A DNA stretch of 64,000 nucleotides from a virus (taxonomy: Duplodnaviria > Heunggongvirae > Uroviricota > Caudoviricetes): IMG/VR virus record IMGVR_UViG_2541047938_000006; one strand, written 5' to 3'. Position 1 is the first letter of the stretch, and the number at the start of each line of letters is the position of its first letter. The notes beneath the pieces are model-generated. The model searched no databases, was not told the origin of the DNA, and saw only the letters and a program-made list of their open reading frames with translations. Both the position numbers and the translations under genes were made by a program. Below are positions 40,838 to 50,841 of this stretch, piece by piece.

Positions 40838-41934
40838 TTATGCTGCTACGGCATTCACACCAACAGTAAGACTTTCAATCAGCACAGGGTAAGTTGCCGC
40901 ATTTCCGGTAATATCCGTAATTGCCAGCGCGTTGGCCTCAAAGGCTGCATTCGTCCATCTGGTCAGCGTAAACGGTTTTCCTGCTGCATTATCAAGCACC
41001 GGCGTGACGTTCAGCGAGCCACCACCCGGGAAGCGGAAAGTCAGCGTGTGCCAGTCGTGATCGAACGGACCATAACTACCAAGCCGCTGTGATGTGGTGT
41101 TTGCATGATACATCACATTGATGTTTGTTTTATCAGTCTGCAGATAGAAGGCCGCAATATAACCCTCCTCTGATTCCGCTCCCGGCCATCCACTACCGCG
41201 CCAGTAAATACCCGCAGAATATTGATTTGCAGAAGCATTGAGAGATACATCATCGGGGATTTTAAAGCGCAGCGTGATTTCACCGCCGTTATCGAACAGC
41301 TCCTTCCCCTTACCGGCATCAATTGCGTGCGATACTTTCCAGGTCTTTTTCTGTGCAAGACCATTTTCTGGTTTTTCAAGACGAAGGGCTTTTTTACCTG
41401 AACCACTGTCACTGACCAGCGTGTTTTTGACATCTGTCAGCGTCCAGCCCTGCGAAGCCAGAGCGGCATTTTCCGCATTCACATCATAAGCCAGCACTGA
41501 CTGTATCTTTGTCGGGACAACGGCTTCAGGCTGAGTATCGCCACTCTCCTGTGCTGGTTGCGATACGCCTCCGCCTGAAGAAACCGCGGCTTTTGTCACT
41601 TTCCCGGAAACAAAATCTGCCACTCTGCCCACATGCAGAAGAATGGCTGTTGCCAGACGGTCGGAAATAATTCCGCGACGCGCCCATGAACCAAAGTGGG
41701 TTTTACGATCGGATGTTGTCCAGCTCTTCGCATCCGTTCGTCCACCGGAACCATAATACCCGATAGCCGGAATATCCGGGTCTTCTGACGGTTCATTGGT
41801 CCCGACTTTCTGACCATTGTCATCCATCATAAACGGCACAAAGAAGATATTTTTACCGGCTTTGGTTTTGTATGCGCCATAGACGGCATCGTATTGCGCT
41901 GAATACGTCTCCTTCCAGTAGTACGTCGTGTCAC
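40838..41934 (-). pseudogene. nanS-p-type sialate O-acetylesterase, C-terminal part (gene split by IS insertion)
   Basis: N-terminus of this fragment (SDTTYYWKETYSAQYDAVYG...RGIISDRLATAIL) matches recalled C-terminal region of E. coli YjhS/NanS; continues the frame of ORF 44488..45429 across the IS. Confidence 0.8.
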
Positions 41935-42127
41935 TGCGTATTTTCATGAAAGGAGATCACTCAATAACTTCCATCGAGATCGGGTAATAACATTTGAACA
42001 GATCGCTGAATAACATCGATGGAGATCACTTTTGACTCATTTTGTTATTCAGTGATCTCCATCAATGTTATTGGAACTTCACAGGTGTGTTGATCTGTAT
42101 CTTTTGCCATTCCGGTAAAGGATACCT

Positions 42128-43669
42128 ATGCCAACAGTTCCAATTTCTATGAGAAAACTTAAAGAAATTCTTAGGCTTAAATACGGTGTTGGACTCAGCC
42201 ATCGACAAATTGGTCGTAGTCTTGCAATCTCCCCTTCCGTTGTATCCAGATATGCTAATCGGGCGGCTCAACTTGGCATAAAGCAGTGGCCCTTACCTAC
42301 AGGATGGGATGATACAAAACTAAAACATGCGTTCCTTCAGACCCAGGTTAAGATGAAGAAGCACTCTCTGCCTGACTGGGCTACAGTACACCGGGAACTG
42401 CGTAATAAATGCGTGACGCTGCAGCTACTCTGGGAAGAATACTGTGAGCGTAATCCAGGCGGTTTTTACAGCTATAACCATTACTGCCGGATGTACCGTG
42501 AATGGCTCAAAACCACTTCACCATCAATGCGTCAGGTACATAAAGCTGGCGAAAAACTTTTCGTTGATTACTGTGGACCTACCGTTGGCGTTACCGACCC
42601 TGAGACCGGAGAAATAAGAACTGCTCAGGTCATCGTAGCTGTTCTCGGGGCATCAAGTTACACATGGGCAGAGGCCACCTGGTCTCAGCAGCTTGAAGAC
42701 TGGGTGATGAGTCATGTTCGCTGCTTCCAGTGGTTGGGTGGCGTTCCTGAACTTGTTGTTCCGGACAATCTGAAAAGCGCCACATCCAGGGCATGTAAGT
42801 ATGATCCTGACGTTAACCCTACCTACCAGCAGATGCTTGAGCATTATAATGTCGCAGTTTTGCCTGCGCGGCCACGTAAACCGAAAGATAAAGCCAAAGC
42901 TGAAGTTGGCGTTCAGGTTGTTGAACGCTGGATCATGGCCCGAATCAGGCATGAGATCTTCTACAGCCTTGCATCGCTTAATCAGCGCATTCGGGAGTTG
43001 CTGGAAAGACTGAATAACAAAATAATGCAGAAGTTGGGTTATTCACGTGCAGAACTCTTCATCCAGCTTGATAAACCCGCACTGAAGCCTCTTCCTGAAG
43101 CCAGTTACAGTTACACCCTGGTGAAGAAAGTCAGAGTTCATGCCGATTACCACGTGGAAATCGACAAACATTACTACTCGGTTCCATGTTCGCTGTTAGG
43201 CCAGCAACTGGAAGCATGGATCTCCGGAGAACTGGTAAGACTCTTCAATCAGGGGCAGGAGGTTGCTGTGCACCCGCGCAAGCGTACTTATGGCTACAGT
43301 ACCCGCAACGAGCACATGCCTGAAGCTCATCGACAGCATGCCACCTGGACGCCAGAGCGTCTTCTGGAATGGGCGGGGCACATAGGCAGTGAAACTCATA
43401 GTTATGTGCTTCATATACTGAACTCTCGTCCACATCCGGAACAAAGCTATCGCTTCTGCCTTGGACTCCTGAACCTTCATAAAAAATACAGTAAAGCCAG
43501 ACTTAATGCAGCATGTGCAAGAGCTCTGAAAACAAAGGTATGGCGTCTGTCAGGTATTAAATCGATCCTGGAAAAAGGTCTGGATAAACAACCTGTTCAG
43601 GATCCAAAACCAGATCTGTTATCCACGATGGAACACGAAAACGTACGCGGCAGTGAGTATTACCACTGA
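42128..43669 (+). CDS. istA: IS21-family transposase IstA
   Basis: 513 aa, N-terminal HTH and DDE-type core; followed by IstB. Confidence 0.85.
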   Translation: MPTVPISMRKLKEILRLKYGVGLSHRQIGRSLAISPSVVSRYANRAAQLGIKQWPLPTGWDDTKLKHAFLQTQVKMKKHSLPDWATVHRELRNKCVTLQLLWEEYCERNPGGFYSYNHYCRMYREWLKTTSPSMRQVHKAGEKLFVDYCGPTVGVTDPETGEIRTAQVIVAVLGASSYTWAEATWSQQLEDWVMSHVRCFQWLGGVPELVVPDNLKSATSRACKYDPDVNPTYQQMLEHYNVAVLPARPRKPKDKAKAEVGVQVVERWIMARIRHEIFYSLASLNQRIRELLERLNNKIMQKLGYSRAELFIQLDKPALKPLPEASYSYTLVKKVRVHADYHVEIDKHYYSVPCSLLGQQLEAWISGELVRLFNQGQEVAVHPRKRTYGYSTRNEHMPEAHRQHATWTPERLLEWAGHIGSETHSYVLHILNSRPHPEQSYRFCLGLLNLHKKYSKARLNAACARALKTKVWRLSGIKSILEKGLDKQPVQDPKPDLLSTMEHENVRGSEYYH

Positions 43670-43680
43670 TACGGGATCCA

Positions 43681-44430
43681 ATGATGAATCATCTTTACGA
43701 ACAACTGACCGCACTTAAACTCACCGGCTTCCGTGATGCGCTTAAAAAGCAACTTGCTCAGCCGGGCACATACCAGGAGCTGGGCTTCGAAGAACGCCTG
43801 TCATTACTGACAGCAGAAGAACTAACCTGCCGTGAAAACAGGAAGGCAGAGCGTCTGATCAAACATGCACGGTTCAGACTTAATGCTGAGTTATCAAAGC
43901 TGGATTATCGTAACAATAGAGGGCTGGACAGGGCCCTCATCCGTTCACTCAGTCAGGGAAACTGGTTAACCCTGAAACAAAATATTTTACTGACCGGGGC
44001 CACCGGCAGCGGTAAAACGTTCCTGGCATGTGCACTTGGTCATAATGCCTGCCGACAGGGATACAAGGTCTACTATTATCGCCTTAAAGCGCTGATGGAA
44101 CAGTGCTATCAGGGGCATGCTGATGGAAGATACAGCAAACTTTTGACCAGGCTGAATAATAGCGATCTGCTGCTTCTGGATGACTGGGGGCTGGAACCTC
44201 TCTCATCAGAACAGCGTAGCGACCTGCTGGAAATAGTGGATCTGATGTACCAACGAGGCTCAATCATCGTAGTGAGCCAGTTGCCGGTGGAAAACTGGTA
44301 CAAAATGATCGGAGACTCCACACATGCGGATGCCATCCTAGATCGACTGGTTCATGGCAGTATCAAGATCGAACTTAAAGGAGAATCAATGCGGAAAATA
44401 CAATCTCCGTTGACCGAAGGAGATCAGTGA
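43681..44430 (+). CDS. istB: IS21-family ATP-binding helper IstB
   Basis: 249 aa with Walker A GATGSGKTFLACALG and Walker B LLLLDDWG. Confidence 0.9.
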   Translation: MMNHLYEQLTALKLTGFRDALKKQLAQPGTYQELGFEERLSLLTAEELTCRENRKAERLIKHARFRLNAELSKLDYRNNRGLDRALIRSLSQGNWLTLKQNILLTGATGSGKTFLACALGHNACRQGYKVYYYRLKALMEQCYQGHADGRYSKLLTRLNNSDLLLLDDWGLEPLSSEQRSDLLEIVDLMYQRGSIIVVSQLPVENWYKMIGDSTHADAILDRLVHGSIKIELKGESMRKIQSPLTEGDQ

Positions 44431-44515
44431 AGGTAATTTAAAAACGGTTCTGTGAAAGTGACACGAACCGATCTCCATCGATGTTACTCACCGATCTCCT
44501 TCACGGTAATACGCA

Positions 44516-45399
44516 GTGTCACCACAAATCCAGGGCACCAGAGAAGGAGAAGCACCAGCGCACTGACCGGATACTCCCGCCAGGTCAGAACGGTATTTTT
44601 CCACCATGGCATCAAACATGGCGGGCTGACTGGCGTACGCTCCCTGTTTTAAATCAAACTCGCCCTGCATCCAGACAACACAAAGTAGTATGTTTTTGGG
44701 GTTTGCCTTCAGCGCGGCCTGAGTGCGTGTCAGCAGGTCTTTATACAACGGCTTATCAACGCCCCATCGTTCAGATTTATCCGACGCTCCTGAACTTTCA
44801 CTGAACGTTCCGTCAGCACCGGCTGTAAACGCAGAGCCACCACGACAGCACGGCACTAACAAAATACCCGCATTTTCCGGCATAAAGGGCAACAGCTTTT
44901 TGGCAATATGCAATCCCTGTCCGACACACCCATACTGCTCTGCGCTGGCTTTCGGATGAGAAAAACGGCTCAAATCCTGCACATCATGCAGGCAGTGGTC
45001 CGCCGGAATGATGTCGTTATATGCACAGGCCGCACCACCCGGTGTCACCGTACTGCGACGCGCCAGCTGTTTAATACGCGGGTCCGGACGGTCATATGTC
45101 TCCGGCAGCGGCAGGCCTTCACCATACGCCATGCCGTTTGACTGTCCGGCCAGCGCAATGACAAAGTAATATTCTGGTTCAACAACAACAGTCCGGGTAC
45201 CATCTCCCCCCGGTGAAACTACCGGAGAGGTCATATCCCCTTCAGCGACTATAGCCTGGATAAATTCAGCACCATAACCCGCGTTTGAGATAATCGGACT
45301 ACCATAGGGTTGCCAGCCTTCCTTCAGTTTTTGCGTCAGTTTTCCTGCGAGGTCTGACGGCGATGATGCCCTGACCACGTCATAGTGTTTAAATGCCAT
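44516..45399 (-). pseudogene. nanS-p-type sialate O-acetylesterase, N-terminal part (DUF1737-like + esterase start)
   Basis: Start MAFKHYDV with RBS GGGAGG; region YYFVIALAGQSNGMAYGEGLPLP...CCRGGSAFTAG matches recalled YjhS/NanS N-terminal half; reading frame ends inside IS terminus. Confidence 0.8.
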
Positions 45400-45600
45400 T
45401 ATTCCTCCCGGCAGGGATAGTGTATGCAATCAAGATAAGGTGCGGGCTGACGTCAGTCATGGACAAGGGTTCAGAAACAGGAGGATGACTACAGCCCGCA
45501 ATACGAAAAAGACCATACAGTTGCGCAGAGTGATTACTATCAGGTATTATTCGCCAGCTGAAAATTGATCACTTCACGTTTTGTTGTTTATTCCTTGCCA

Positions 45601-45629
45601 CCCGCGCTTCCCGGCGCGGGCTTTTTTTT
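45601..45629 (+). terminator. Intrinsic terminator, plus-strand orientation (antisense to late operon)
   Basis: Hairpin CCCGCGC-TTCCCG-GCGCGGG followed by TTTTTTTT. Confidence 0.5.
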
Positions 45630-45630
45630 A

Positions 45631-46380
45631 TCCAACAAGAAAGCCCCTCCGGAGAGGGGCTGGAGAGTAGCGCTATGTACCGTTCATGCATGGTGCAGGG
45701 TGCCTCCCGGTGAGTTCAGTATCAGCACCTGAACCCGCACCAGAAAGGATAAGGGGTGTGACCAAACACCTGTCGCTGATATGCCCCTCCGCACAGGGGG
45801 ATTCACCATGCCATATTTTTTTAACAAACTTCCCGCTGGCCAGACAATAATCGCCAGCCTGAATTGTGAGTAACGTGGCATTTTACGGGAAAACTGTTTT
45901 CTGCAGTAAAAAGGCCCGCCGGAGCGAGCCTGGAAGGATAGCGGTCATGTGATGCCGGTTTCCCGGTAACTCAGCATCGGTATCTGAGTCAACGTTTTCT
46001 CTACTGGGTCATTTCCGATACGTTCCGCCTTCCGGCAGACTTTCATCACGTCAGAAAATATAGCACCCTGAGTAACAGGACAGTACTCAGAATTCAGGAA
46101 ACTGTGACACATCCTGCACAGAAAAGCCCCTCCGGAGAGGGGCTGAAGTATAGCCTAATTTCTGTCTGTCGCATGGTGCCAGGTGCCTCCCGGTAAATTC
46201 AGCCTGGCTACTGAATTTGCATGTTCGCTGGATCATACACTTTGCCAGATGCCCCGCCGCTGAGGGGGATTCACCACGCGATGCAATTTTTAACAAATTC
46301 TCCGGCAGCCAGACAATCATCAAGCTGTGGAATTGTGAGGTATTTAAAAATTTCGCAGCCTCTTGCCACCCGCTTTTCAC
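45631..46380 (-). repeat. Tandem direct repeat units (about 250-480 bp) at the stx-equivalent locus, each ending in an intrinsic terminator on the late strand
   Basis: Blocks AAAGCCCCTCCGGAGAGGGGCTG, GCATGGTGC(C)AGGTGCCTCCCGGT and GGGGGATTCACC...GCCAGACAAT recur at about 45640, 45905 (degenerate) and 46120; minus-strand hairpin plus U-tract at 45631-45660, 45906-45930, 46117-46143. Confidence 0.6.
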
Positions 46381-46658
46381 AAAAATCGTATGTAGAAGGC
46401 CGCAGCGTAACTATCACTGATGAATTCAGGACACCCAGAGGCTACGGCTCAGTTTGGATTGTGGCGGCCGGAATCGAACCAGCTCCCATCGGTGCGCTGC
46501 CGATTACAATACGCGCGGCGATCCGCTACATGACTAGTATTTTCACAGTCGCCTGTCTGCTAGCTCGCCATTGAGCTTCACCACAACGATAAGAGCACTG
46601 CGCACACCTTTCACCAATTCCACGAGGTCTGCGGGTTCAATGCTCTTACCTGTTGTGC

Positions 46659-46690
46659 AAACAAAAAGCCCCGACATTTCTGCCGAGGCC
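46659..46690 (-). terminator. tR'-like terminator downstream of putative late promoter
   Basis: Hairpin with two G-U pairs followed by CTTTTTGTTTGC on minus strand; adjacent segment 46385-46650 resembles, from memory, the lambda sequence just downstream of pR'. Confidence 0.45.
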
Positions 46691-46796
46691 TTTACCTAAT
46701 CTAGCCAGTATGCCGATCCTAAATATTATCGACGACCGAGGTAAATCAGGATTTCTCTTTCGCTTCTCAGTGCGCTTTTGCTCCGAGCATACACAA

Positions 46797-46825
46797 AACA
46801 TACTACTTTCATTTCTCGAAAGCAA
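46797..46825 (-). promoter_or_regulatory. Candidate late promoter pR' (TTGCTT-17-TATGTT)
   Basis: Sigma70-like -35/-10 with 17-bp spacer between Q-like gene stop and tR'-like terminator. Confidence 0.3.
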
Positions 46826-46849
46826 CGCATTTACAAAAAATATTTTGCA

Positions 46850-47464
46850 TCATCCAGCAATCACTAGAAGTTCTTTCTCCAATTCTCGCTTCATTGCATA
46901 AAACATTTCTGAATCAAGGACCCTCTCGCACCACACGACCCGCCTCCGGCAATACTGAATATCAACTCCTGTTATCTGAGAAATCATCCTGGCGATATCT
47001 TGCGTGCTGTCGCGATTGCAATATCGCCTAATAGCTACATCACGGACAGGGCTTTCACGATGAAAGGTCTCAACCATCACACGTTCAACGAAAGCAGCAT
47101 CATCGGATTCTTTGGCGAGAGCAATGATATTACCTGCCGATGACTGAGGGATGACCAGTTCTCGGGCTTTCTGATGGAGTTCATCTCCACGTAGTCCGTC
47201 TTCTTCATACAGACGCATGACAACAGACTCAATCTGCTTAGCTTTGTCATCGCTCCACTGACTGCGAATCATCAGTCGCCCAATAACGTTAATTGCACCA
47301 CAAGGAGAATCATCACCAGCGTTAACATTTCCCCATACCTGTAGCATGTAGTGAACCCATGCTTTCTGACGAGAGTTAATGATTTTCTTCGGATGCCTCC
47401 ATATGCGGCGGAAATGAGCATCATTAATAAAGTTAACCATGCCGAATACTGGGGTTAGCCGCAT
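46850..47464 (-). CDS. Putative late-gene antiterminator (Q-like by position)
   Basis: About 205-aa ORF immediately upstream of the pR'/tR' region and downstream of nin genes; start ATG overlaps upstream stop (TGATG); no recognisable similarity to lambda Q. Confidence 0.4.
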   Translation of the reverse strand: MRLTPVFGMVNFINDAHFRRIWRHPKKIINSRQKAWVHYMLQVWGNVNAGDDSPCGAINVIGRLMIRSQWSDDKAKQIESVVMRLYEEDGLRGDELHQKARELVIPQSSAGNIIALAKESDDAAFVERVMVETFHRESPVRDVAIRRYCNRDSTQDIARMISQITGVDIQYCRRRVVWCERVLDSEMFYAMKRELEKELLVIAG

Positions 47465-47706
47465 CACAGCCCCCATCCTTTACAATGACACCACACTTCA
47501 AACATTCGTTTCACAACTTCACGGCAGTAGAAACCGTCAGCATCACGTGTCAGGTCATAGCGATCTCCGTGCTTCAGTCTCATATAGCATTCGAATAATC
47601 TGTTCATATACTCTTCGCCATGAACTCCGCTATTACGCTGCTCATGCGCTTTTCCAGACGACCTGAATAAAGCCATGCGTTCAGGCACCTGCTGAATATC
47701 ACGCAT
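47464..47706 (-). CDS. Hypothetical protein; N-terminus MRDIQQV resembles start of 933W-type Q
   Basis: 81-aa reading frame starting MRDIQQVPER (recalled Q933 starts MRDIQ.VLERWGAW) then diverging; overlaps ninH stop. Confidence 0.3.
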   Translation of the reverse strand: MRDIQQVPERMALFRSSGKAHEQRNSGVHGEEYMNRLFECYMRLKHGDRYDLTRDADGFYCREVVKRMFEVWCHCKGWGL

Positions 47707-49221: not shown

Positions 49222-49896
49222 TCAGAATTCAAATTGTCTTGCCCGCAGGCTTTTCAGCATTGGCATGGCCCGCTGGATAACGGAACTTGACATGTCGAGA
49301 CGTGTTACCTCCCTTAGTAGCGCGTCTCTGTTCTTCGTCACCATGTAGATGGTCTCAAACGCAATGTCATACAGCTTGTTCGTGTATGAGGAGTTCAGCT
49401 CTTTCATAATGGGATACAGGTGTTTGCTGAGGTCCTGGGCTTTTTCCATCCAGAGCTGCATGTAGCAAAGGAGGATGATTTCTTCGGCTGTGAATTGTGG
49501 CTGAATCTGCGGCTGCTGTTCGGTTGGTGCTGTTTTTCCCTGGCTGAAATAGCAGTCTTCCAGTTTTTCGAACACTTCCCACGCCTGATCGGTTTCTAGC
49601 ATTTTTGCGTGGCGGGCTGCGCCTCGTTCTGTCCAGAGGATGAGCGAGCGGGTTTTGGGAGAGATTTTCACCTCATTTTGCGACTCGTTTAAAACTAGTC
49701 GCAAATTTCTGAGTTCATCACCAACAGCTTTAAAGAAGTGCTTTCCCTCAATAAACCGAGATTTATTTTCATGGTGATTCTGCTGTATACGGATTGTTTC
49801 TGTTCCATAAAGGCGGGCAAGCAACTCAGTTGTGATTACCGGAATCTGGTTATAGGTAACAGGGGAAAGGTTTTTGACAGAGATTTGAACAGTCAT
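49222..49896 (-). CDS. Phage antirepressor-like protein (Bro/ORF6-type N-terminal domain + KilA-C-type C-terminal domain)
   Basis: 224 aa; C-terminal about 112 aa almost identical to 2657..3292 product. Confidence 0.65.
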   Translation of the reverse strand: MTVQISVKNLSPVTYNQIPVITTELLARLYGTETIRIQQNHHENKSRFIEGKHFFKAVGDELRNLRLVLNESQNEVKISPKTRSLILWTERGAARHAKMLETDQAWEVFEKLEDCYFSQGKTAPTEQQPQIQPQFTAEEIILLCYMQLWMEKAQDLSKHLYPIMKELNSSYTNKLYDIAFETIYMVTKNRDALLREVTRLDMSSSVIQRAMPMLKSLRARQFEF

Positions 49897-50202
49897 AACG
49901 ACCTCGCGTTTCGATAATTTTTACCTCACCACCTTCAGGTGCTAATCATCGTGGTGGCGAACTGTGCGGGGTTAGCACTACCGGTCGAAACATCCGGCGA
50001 GCCTTTCGGCTCCCCCACACAGCCCGCCATAAATCGCGAATGTGACTGTGCTTAGCGCATAAAAAAACCGCCAGCGCGGTTATGCACCGTTTCGATATCC
50101 GGGGTGCTAATCCCGACGCCAGATTTTGCTGGCGTGCGAAGAATATAATCCCGGATATGTGTTGTCGTCAACATACCTTGAATGTATATAACAAATTTGT
50201 TA

Positions 50203-50543
50203 TGTTTACTCTCATAAACTACATTATCGAATACTACAGTGACGAGGTTGAAGCTGAGATCCTTTCTCTTCCTGAGACCTTACAAGCCAGGTACATTCGG
50301 TACACGGAGAAAATGCGTATTTACGGAGCTAATCTTGGTTCCCCGCATACAGAGGCATTTGGCGACGGTTTGTTTGAAATCCGCCTTAAGGGCTCGGAAG
50401 GCATAGGGCGTGTTTTTTACTGCACGCTAAAAGGAAAGCGAATCATTATGTTGCATAGCTTTGTAAAGAAAACGCAAAAAACTCCACCTGCCGAGCTTAG
50501 AAAAGCTGAAACCAGAATGAAGGAGGTTAAGCATGACTGGTAA
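50203..50543 (+). CDS. HigB/RelE-superfamily toxin (Gp49-like)
   Basis: About 113 aa from ATG at 50203 within ORF 50082..50543; pattern ...FEIRLKGSEGIGRVFYCTLKGKRIIMLHSFVKKTQKTPPAELRKAE typical of Gp49/HigB-like toxins; overlaps downstream HTH gene. Confidence 0.6.
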
Positions 50544-50841
50544 ACGTACCCCACCTACCATGACACACGATGAAATGGTAGAAAAAATGTTGTCTAACCC
50601 CGCAGTAAAAGCAGAATACGACGCCATCGCCGATGAATTCGCACTACTTGATGAAATGCTGGCAGCACGAAAAGAAGCTGGCTTAACCCAGGCTGAAGTT
50701 GCTGAACGTATGGGAACAAAAGCGACTGCGATAACCAGAATGGAAAGCAATCTTGCATCAGGTACAAGCGGCCCATCATTTGCCACACTGAAAAAATTCG
50801 CCCGTGCTACAGGGAAAAAACTCCAGATCCGCTTCGTTTAA
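50533..50841 (+). CDS. XRE-family HTH antitoxin (HigA-like)
   Basis: 102 aa with HTH (GLTQAEVAERMGTKATAITRMES); start overlaps toxin gene end. Confidence 0.65.
   Translation: MTGKRTPPTMTHDEMVEKMLSNPAVKAEYDAIADEFALLDEMLAARKEAGLTQAEVAERMGTKATAITRMESNLASGTSGPSFATLKKFARATGKKLQIRFV

Follow-up and report, generated by a model that had tools for sequence, protein, structure and literature searches.

A tandem array of three STnc100-type small-RNA genes at the stx position of a lambdoid prophage

In a 64,000-nucleotide (nt) stretch of DNA from the tailed-phage record IMGVR_UViG_2541047938_000006 (hereafter the window, meaning this whole stretch), we analysed a group of direct repeats that lie in the late region of a lambdoid prophage, on the late strand between a tR'-like terminator and the first late gene. 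A preliminary description, made from the sequence alone, had noted direct repeats with late-strand hairpins here, and both are present where it had placed them. A block of 37 nt occurs in three copies (at 45635, 45905 and 46118), and blocks of 52, 35 and 32 nt occur in two copies each, with a spacing of 468-483 nt. A scan for terminator-like sites between 45300 and 47000 found 11, compared with 1.6 +/- 1.1 in shuffled sequences. Three hairpins, each with 8 GC-rich base pairs (bp) followed by a T-run, lie on the minus (late) strand (45661-45642, 45931-45912 and 46144-46125), and each serves as the terminator that closes one repeat unit. There are three such units, named A, B and C, all on the minus strand and separated by 40-70 bp (Table 1), where the preliminary description had counted two to three. 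It had also assigned the hairpins to the late strand, which is correct for the three at the unit ends, but the hairpin at 45601-45620 belongs to the plus strand and ends a convergent gene. The order that was likened to Stx2 prophages, with a Q-like gene, a pR'/tR'-like region and a nanS-p-type esterase gene, is supported by a match to PHROG 753, a readable tR'-like terminator and Pfam domains. Neither stxA nor stxB was found in the window by tblastn, in agreement with the statement that stx genes are absent.

The idea that the units are small-RNA genes is borne out by a search of each unit with Rfam covariance models and by homologues that have been validated at the same prophage position. We took membership of the STnc100 family to mean a score against the Rfam model RF02076 of at least the curated gathering score, which is 47 bits. 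Units A and C are members of this known small-RNA family, since both exceed the gathering score, and both align over the full length of the model (positions 1-206). Unit B lies below the gathering score, though its alignment also runs from end to end, and the Rfam scan matched it to no family other than STnc100. Copies of the B type at other loci score 28.5-30.1 bits. Unit B is thus a diverged relative, and not an STnc100 member by Rfam's rule. We also considered whether the units could be PasD, and rejected this identity. A BLAST comparison of PasD2 from strain E2348/69, taken at its published coordinates, with the window matched only the 5' helix and the P4 region, as patches of 29 and 23 nt in units A and C, and the linker and terminator of PasD do not align with units A, B or C.

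Table 1. Features of the small-RNA array and its surroundings in the window (positions are those of the 64,000-nt stretch)
Feature	Position	Strand	Evidence
Unit C, STnc100-family small-RNA gene	46116..46309	-	RF02076 138.7 bits; model R1 155.7 bits; folded RNA ~46279 to 46120
Unit B, diverged STnc100-like small-RNA gene	45905..46080	-	RF02076 30.0 bits, E 7e-4; folded RNA ~46051 to 45905
Unit A, STnc100-family small-RNA gene	45631..45840	-	RF02076 129.9 bits; model R1 159.1 bits; folded RNA ~45811 to 45632
Convergent small-RNA gene, homologue of EcOnc08/21/42 and E2348C_1409.E2348C_1408.IGR	45441..45628	+	Homology; plus-strand terminator 45601-45628
Second convergent small-RNA gene, remnant with seed and 5' arm of the terminator, upstream of unit C	46362..46378	+	17 nt; direct repeat pairs CTTGCCACCCGCTTTTC with 45594-45610
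Q-like late antiterminator gene	46850..47476	-	PHROG 753 'anti-termination protein Q-like', E 3.5e-68
Intrinsic terminator resembling tR', after the presumed pR'	46658..46693	-	Sequence GGCCTCGGCAGAAATGTCGGGGCTTTTTGTTTG, readable directly
tRNA 3' fragment (T-arm and acceptor strand, GGTTCGATTCCGGCCGCCACA)	46418..46488	-	Weak tmRNA/tRNA-like Rfam match, 13.5 bits
nanS-p-type esterase gene, 5' part (DUF1737 and SASA)	44506..45399	-	Pfam; tblastn with the intact PhiR5_2 gene, residues 1-209
IS21-family insertion splitting nanS-p	41935..44495	+	istA 42128-43669, istB 43681-44430; Pfam rve/Mu-transposase, IstB_IS21
nanS-p-type esterase gene, 3' part (DUF6645)	40841..41941	-	tblastn residues 202-568, 99% identity; Pfam DUF6645

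An alignment of 12 units, from the window and from relatives, gave one common architecture. A closing helix P1, which starts at GCAUGGUG, is followed by the hairpin P2, a variable loop, P3, P4 and the return strand of P1, such that the core forms a four-way junction. After P1 come an unpaired linker of 17-27 nt and then the terminator. With these 12 units, RNAalifold predicted 32 pairs and compensatory changes in 13 of them. Unit B is unlike A and C in nearly every helix, and the pairs are kept through compensatory substitutions. We then built a covariance model, R1, from ten units, and a search of 95 loci with this model returned 131 matches. Among 124 distinct aligned relatives, standard pairs occupy 95.9% of cells, both sides have changed in 30 of 34 pairs, and the covariation score is 0.356, as against at most 0.06 for slid partners and with none of 500 shuffles reaching it; because this alignment was fitted to a model that included the window units, these counts lean towards the structure, but the margin is still large. 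The consensus STnc100 fold, which consists of a closing helix, three hairpins and a terminal hairpin, fits all three units, and the minimum-free-energy fold of unit C includes both the closing helix and the terminator. Relative to shuffled sequences, the folding-energy z-scores are modest (-0.80 for A, -2.27 for B and -2.25 for C), so the case for the structure rests on covariation, not on thermodynamics.

Different parts of the units are conserved to very different extents. Paralogues have 76-97% identity in the 5' and 3' blocks of the core and in the terminator, but only 15-42% in the linker and in the loop between P2 and P3. Modules have also been reassorted: the loop of unit A is 91% like that of one relative, and its linker is essentially that of another. 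Across the family, the stretches UGGUGAAUCCCCCU..GCGG.GGGGC and UCACCGGGAGGCACCCGGCACCA are nearly invariant, and P3 and the terminator stem vary by covariation. Judged by these alignments, the conservation pattern is that of a fixed scaffold with exchangeable, presumably specificity-determining regions.

To learn how common the array is and how it relates to stx, we counted its occurrences in 5426 complete E. coli genomes. Of these, 17 contain the 1.5-kb locus in its exact form, as does phage PhiR5_2 (PV340546), which is identical to the window over 45400-46900 and whose recorded host is E. coli K-12 MG1655. Unit B occurs in 673 genomes (at 99% identity or more in 339, and at 90-95% in 331), and no annotation lies beneath it in the records listed. 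The whole C-B-A array, at a coverage of at least 80%, was found in 673 genomes as well. As the two numbers are equal, unit B appears to occur only inside the array; it is a sub-threshold, unannotated paralogue that is carried by 12% of complete E. coli genomes. STnc100-like sequence in general is present in 3081 genomes, at up to 13 places per genome. Strains 55989 and 042 both carry the array. It is not tied to one type of prophage, as we found it in several backbones. One has the order Q, tRNA, DUF3927, array, IraM and holin, and another has Q, kinase/phosphatase, methylase, three tRNAs, array, esterase and holin. Tandem arrays of two to five STnc100-type units were also seen in 18 of the 115 IMG/VR loci that have the family (e.g. 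L012, L017, L028 and L063), with units spaced by roughly 250-260 bp. In view of these 18 viral contigs, tandem stacking is a general habit of the STnc100 family, and not peculiar to this prophage.

The preliminary description had asked whether the units replace stx or flank it, and a comparison of the stx-less strain 55989 with the Stx2a phage Stx2_14040 answers this differently for different units. The two are syntenic through the tRNAs. At that point, stxAB of Stx2_14040 is exchanged for C and B (474 bp) in 55989, and synteny restarts at an A-type STnc100 copy, which is followed by the convergent gene and the esterase gene. Unit A therefore has the position of the STnc100 copy downstream of stx2B in Stx2_14040. 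By this alignment, C and B replace stx exactly in its slot, and the A-type copy, which is the small RNA EcOnc27/sRNA103, flanks stx2B. Non-toxigenic relatives carry a three-gene array of which the first two units fill the stxAB slot.

Relatives of the units have been studied in several bacteria, and what is said here on expression, size and Hfq binding is taken from this literature on homologues; the membership of A and C in the family, the common fold and its covariation, how often the array recurs and where it lies with respect to stx were computed here. STnc100 is an Rfam family derived from Salmonella, and is among the most abundant annotated small RNAs (PMC9029176). The relatives EcOnc05, EcOnc06 and EcOnc27 from enterohaemorrhagic E. 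coli (EHEC) and PasD1 and PasD2 from enteropathogenic E. coli (EPEC) are validated by Northern blots, bound by Hfq and located at the same prophage position (PMC4104026, PMC8550237, PMC7873438). In O157:H7 EDL933, 11 STnc100 copies are transcribed in ordinary uninduced culture, one of them with confirmation from a Northern blot (PMC5331693). Northern blots of O157 Sakai gave sizes of ~222 nt for EcOnc05, ~177 nt for EcOnc06 and ~235/247 nt for EcOnc27; all three RNAs were recovered through cross-linking to Hfq, and the 247-nt form of EcOnc27 was destabilised without Hfq (PMC4104026). The EcOnc05 probe is identical, at 35 of 35 positions, to the first unit of the array in 55989, which is of the same type as that in the window, and the EcOnc27 probe aligns to the linker of unit C at 22 of 28 positions. 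EcOnc27, also called sRNA103, lies directly downstream of stx2B and overlaps an STnc100 annotation, and a machine-learning study of O157:H7 in 2025 ranked its single-nucleotide polymorphisms with the strongest predictors of haemolytic uraemic syndrome (PMC12711010). PasD1 and PasD2 of EPEC E2348/69 are 172-173 nt long and are reported to be Hfq-dependent by Northern blot; their seed, UGUGAG, was inferred from the common motif of targets found by RNA interaction by ligation and sequencing (RIL-seq), and is in the linker just 5' of the terminator. Zhu, Shabalina and Storz noted the structural kinship of PasD and STnc100 and proposed a common ancestor (bioRxiv 10.64898/2026.05.13.724894). The mapped 5' end of PasD2 is the first base of P1. 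In Salmonella, a signal for RpoD in chromatin immunoprecipitation with exonuclease digestion (ChIP-exo) has been reported at STnc100 promoters, and RpoN binding has been reported too.

The window units share their fold, size class and late-strand orientation with the studied STnc100 RNAs (including EcOnc05, EcOnc06 and EcOnc27/sRNA103), and like them are found after pR'/tR' and before nanS-p or the lysis genes. However, published accounts treat single copies or one convergent dyad, whereas the window has three tandem copies, and the loops and linkers of its units differ from those of the studied copies. PasD1 and PasD2 likewise lie between Q and a sialate esterase gene and have the core GCAUGGUGAAUCC..., P3 and P4, and PasD2 resembles unit B in having a sub-threshold relation to RF02076 (41.4 bits). 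On the other hand, by BLAST PasD resembles the units only over the first ~26 nt and in the P4 region, its linker and terminator are unrelated to theirs, and Zhu et al. found no two PasD copies less than 74 kb apart, in contrast to the 40-70 bp between the window units. Tandemly duplicated small-RNA genes are also known elsewhere, namely OmrA/B, PrrF1/2 and Qrr. These are, by analogy only, similar in that adjacent paralogues have a common scaffold and terminator and differ in parts of their sequence, but they are core-genome genes with known regulators and targets.

We consider it likely that the units are autonomous, Hfq-associated small-RNA 'morons' that have their own promoters and occupy the stx/moron slot; the promoters, trans-action and targets of the window copies are the parts of this proposal that we infer. 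The late region of this lambdoid prophage would then hold, in its 'moron' slot, a cluster of autonomous small-RNA genes, of which three tandem STnc100-family genes (C, B and A) are on the late strand and a fourth, similar to EcOnc08/21/42, converges on A. Each STnc100-type RNA would be ~150-210 nt long and would comprise the four-way junction, the linker and the intrinsic terminator. In the lysogen, each unit would be transcribed from its own weak sigma-70 promoter, with transcription stopping at its own terminator. The RNA would bind Hfq and use its variable regions to base-pair with mRNAs or with other small RNAs; these regions could be the linker, where the PasD seed is located, and/or the variable loop between P2 and P3. 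Since the variable parts are unrelated between A, B and C, the array would provide three specificities on one scaffold. The terminators might also keep the unit promoters from driving nanS-p and the lysis genes, and, after induction, Q-modified polymerase coming from pR' would read through all of the units.

As to the promoters, A and C remain conserved in sequence for ~60 nt ahead of P1, where the fold begins. Among 100 unique units, conservation upstream of P1 is most informative in an AT-rich, -10-like block (-13 to -8, counted from P1) and at -35-like T nucleotides (-33 and -36). Two weak candidate promoters can be proposed. With the first, TTGTCT-18-(TG)n-TAAAAA, transcription would start at P1, as it does for PasD. 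With the second, TTACTC-18-TATTGT, it would start ~30 nt upstream, at the start of the Rfam model, which fits the longer bands seen in EHEC. The candidate for unit B is TGCTATATT, an extended -10-like motif that is 7 nt upstream of the fold. By eye, we saw no sigma-54 -24/-12 motif.

Several observations weigh against autonomous small-RNA genes. The candidate promoters (TTGTCT-18-TAAAAA with TG, and the motif upstream of B) look weak in sequence, and a simple scan with the sigma-70 consensus found no late-strand promoter upstream of any unit; it matched the plus strand only, at places where the conserved AT-rich block reads in reverse complement. In the 100 unique units, family-wide conservation upstream of the units is modest. 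The published sizes of 172-247 nt imply more than one 5' end, which makes the start sites uncertain, and the start of the Rfam model, ~30 nt upstream of P1, is at odds with the 5' end of PasD at P1. Short, interrupted U-tracts such as those of the units (3-5 U) are not typical of terminators that bind Hfq strongly. The folding energy of unit A is no better than that of shuffled sequences. Moreover, a terminator-less copy of the same core forms a leader of kil/dicB (see below), so the core may have a role in cis. Finally, none of the STnc100 members has an established function or direct target (PMC9029176, PMC7873438).

An alternative, put forward in the preliminary description, is that the units have no promoters of their own, and that small RNAs arise from the pR' late transcript, either by termination at the hairpins or by processing after induction. 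This would agree with the location of the units, which follow tR' and precede the first late gene on the late strand, and with the outcome of the scan, which called no consensus sigma-70 promoter there. In addition, a DicF-like RNA adjoins a copy of the same core in the window, and the example of DicF shows that a small RNA of a prophage can be processed from a polycistronic transcript. In lambdoid phages, however, pR' transcripts stop at tR' when Q is lacking, and the Q-modified polymerase is resistant to terminators, so it would make no 3' ends at the hairpins. Also, homologues are abundant in uninduced cultures and are reported to be Hfq-dependent on Northern blots, each unit has conserved promoter-like sequence ahead of it, the conservation of A and C continues upstream beyond the fold, the 5' end of PasD is at the start of the fold, and RpoD binding is reported at the Salmonella copies. 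Because Q-modified polymerase ignores terminators, homologues are expressed without induction and there is an RpoD signal, late read-through is unlikely to be the main source of the RNAs, and this part of the preliminary description is not supported. It is similarly improbable, in our view, that the units act mainly in cis, as extra terminators or structured leaders that insulate nanS-p and the lysis genes, or that control the stability or processing of late mRNA. The units do add three more terminators after tR', the terminator-less core that lies 30-70 nt upstream of the toxic kil/dicB genes, in the window and in other prophages, looks like a cis leader, and no trans target has been proven for STnc100 (PMC7873438). 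Yet selection has acted on the whole four-way junction, beyond the terminator. The hypervariable, reassorting linker and loop resemble a seed region, the PasD linker contains a seed supported by RIL-seq, and Hfq binding of homologues is documented.

The repeats could also be decaying scars of recombination between prophages, with unit B in particular a dead copy. Unit B is indeed under the gathering score (30 vs 47 bits), a truncated remnant of a convergent gene lies upstream of C, the modules are mosaic, and an insertion sequence already splits the neighbouring gene. But unit B keeps every helix by compensatory substitutions, folds better than shuffled sequences, retains an extended -10-like motif and a terminator, and occurs in two variant classes across its 673 genomes, always within the array. 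Its loop and linker are identical in the window and in strain 55989, while P2 has changed. We therefore regard decay as very improbable. There is next to no chance that the short open reading frames (ORFs) inside the repeats encode small proteins, even though ORFs of 55-117 amino acids are annotated in RefSeq and in phage PhiR5_2, where public records call them 'hypothetical protein', and ribosome footprints have been seen on some STnc100 copies of EDL933 (ribosomal coverage value up to 3.2). The nine ORFs between 45565 and 46574 have no Pfam domain, no conservation of frame and no excess of third-position changes. Nearly all homologous variants of the A and C ORFs have indels (e.g. 26 of 27), the A and C reading frames diverge after ~30 residues, and substitutions in the B ORF are spread evenly over the codon positions (13/18/16). 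These ORFs are non-coding, as the preliminary description had supposed when it doubted that they were conserved proteins.

Unit A and the plus-strand gene at its 3' side end back-to-back. This convergent gene is 79-81% identical to four homologues, among them (at 78.9% over 228 aligned positions) the EPEC small RNA E2348C_1409.E2348C_1408.IGR, which was found by RIL-seq and is described as a homologue of EcOnc08/21/42. The Northern probe for EcOnc08/21/42 aligns to the window gene at 28 of 31 positions. Directly 5' of the terminator of this gene is CCUUGCC (45593-45599), which is complementary to GGCAAGG, the RIL-seq target motif of the EPEC small RNA. We rejected the possibility that the gene is AsxR or AgvB, as neither RF02703 nor RF02702 is among the 18 matches listed for 45430-45660 at E values up to 10, nor did they match in a 4-kb scan. 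In at least eight Sakai prophages, Hfq-binding small RNAs have been described as convergent pairs ('dyads') that lie after the late promoter and before the lysis genes, and the reason for this arrangement was called unclear both then and in a later review (Tree et al. 2014; Sy and Tree, PMC7873438). Unit A and its convergent partner resemble the dyads AsxR/EcOnc27 and AgvB/EcOnc06 in being back-to-back at this location, but differ in that the partner is of the EcOnc08/21/42 type and two further late-strand units have been added. The 17-nt remnant upstream of unit C suggests that the array has expanded through recombination of one dyad with another.

A terminator-less copy of the STnc100 core was also observed in the early-left operon, at 58906-59041 on the plus strand (R1 40 bits, E 1.8e-8; RF02076 31 bits). 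It follows a DicF-like RNA (58838-58887, plus strand; RF00039, 29 bits, below threshold), precedes kil (start at 59070) by ~30 nt, and has the P4 variant CCUGG/CCAGG. The same element is found before kilR in the K-12 Rac prophage (L131 1282-1430) and before dicB in Qin-type prophages (L133 and L134), with E values from 4e-9 to 7e-12. The conserved core GGUGAAU ... UCACCNGGAGGCACCNGGCACC is thus common to the units and to the dicB/kil leaders that Qin- and Rac-type prophages carry. Unlike the units, the leaders have no linker-terminator module, and are 5' leaders of the early-left operon instead of separate genes. Using one genome per species from GTDB, we found the P4 motif of the core across Enterobacterales (105 occurrences in 120 loci). 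Our terminator finder was too strict to classify copies of the G type, so only the result for the seven kil-type (T-type) copies is used here: none has a detectable terminator, and in five of the seven a called ORF is next (two KilR-like and one DicB-like). In the literature that we examined, we did not find this link between the STnc100 core and kil/dicB leaders. A broader hypothesis, which we think rather unlikely to hold as a whole, is that the core (with its conserved unpaired GAAU, P2 loop and AGGCA loop) is a module for binding a host or phage factor, and is used both in exchangeable-seed arrays at the stx/moron slot and in cis leaders of kil and dicB, which are cell-division inhibitors. 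Unit B would then be a third subfamily beside STnc100 and PasD, and C-B-A a cassette with three specificities that is an alternative cargo to stxAB.

The STnc100 family and its position in the late region, beside stx or instead of it, have already been described, including the dyads between pR' and the lysis genes, and our results leave the current picture of prophage-encoded small RNAs unchanged. The new elements are of modest weight, and consist of an array of three units that recurs, a B subfamily that lacks annotation, the exact correspondence of C-B to the stxAB slot, and the core as a kil/dicB leader. With a constant scaffold, exchanged loops and linkers, and a phage (PhiR5_2) with K-12 MG1655 as host, the array is a tractable system for studying function and seed.

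With regard to the surroundings of the array, the Q-like gene comes after ninH/rusA, as in phage PhiR5_2, and its protein has no Pfam match. A segment in common with phage HK75 begins at the annotated Tr' of HK75. The tRNA 3' fragment is within a 314-bp segment that is 93% identical to the HK75 region downstream of tR'. Because ARAGORN finds no tRNA gene and only this 3' fragment is present, we rejected the possibility that tRNA genes take the place of ileZ-argN-argO. The IS21-family insertion corresponds to a gap in the alignment to PhiR5_2, in which the nanS-p-type gene is intact. The nin region contains a HigB/HigA-type toxin-antitoxin pair (50082-50841, plus strand), which is annotated as such in PhiR5_2. 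Matches to isrK (75.8 bits), C4 antisense RNA (75.1 bits) and the c4 a1b1 target (46.9 bits) lie at 49950-50148 on the minus strand. They adjoin an antirepressor-like ORF (49222-49896), and together resemble a c4-ant immunity module of the P1/P7 type inside a lambdoid prophage. Far from the prophage late region, at 2528-2616 on the plus strand, there is a match to sRNA-Xcc1 (RF02221, 69.1 bits).

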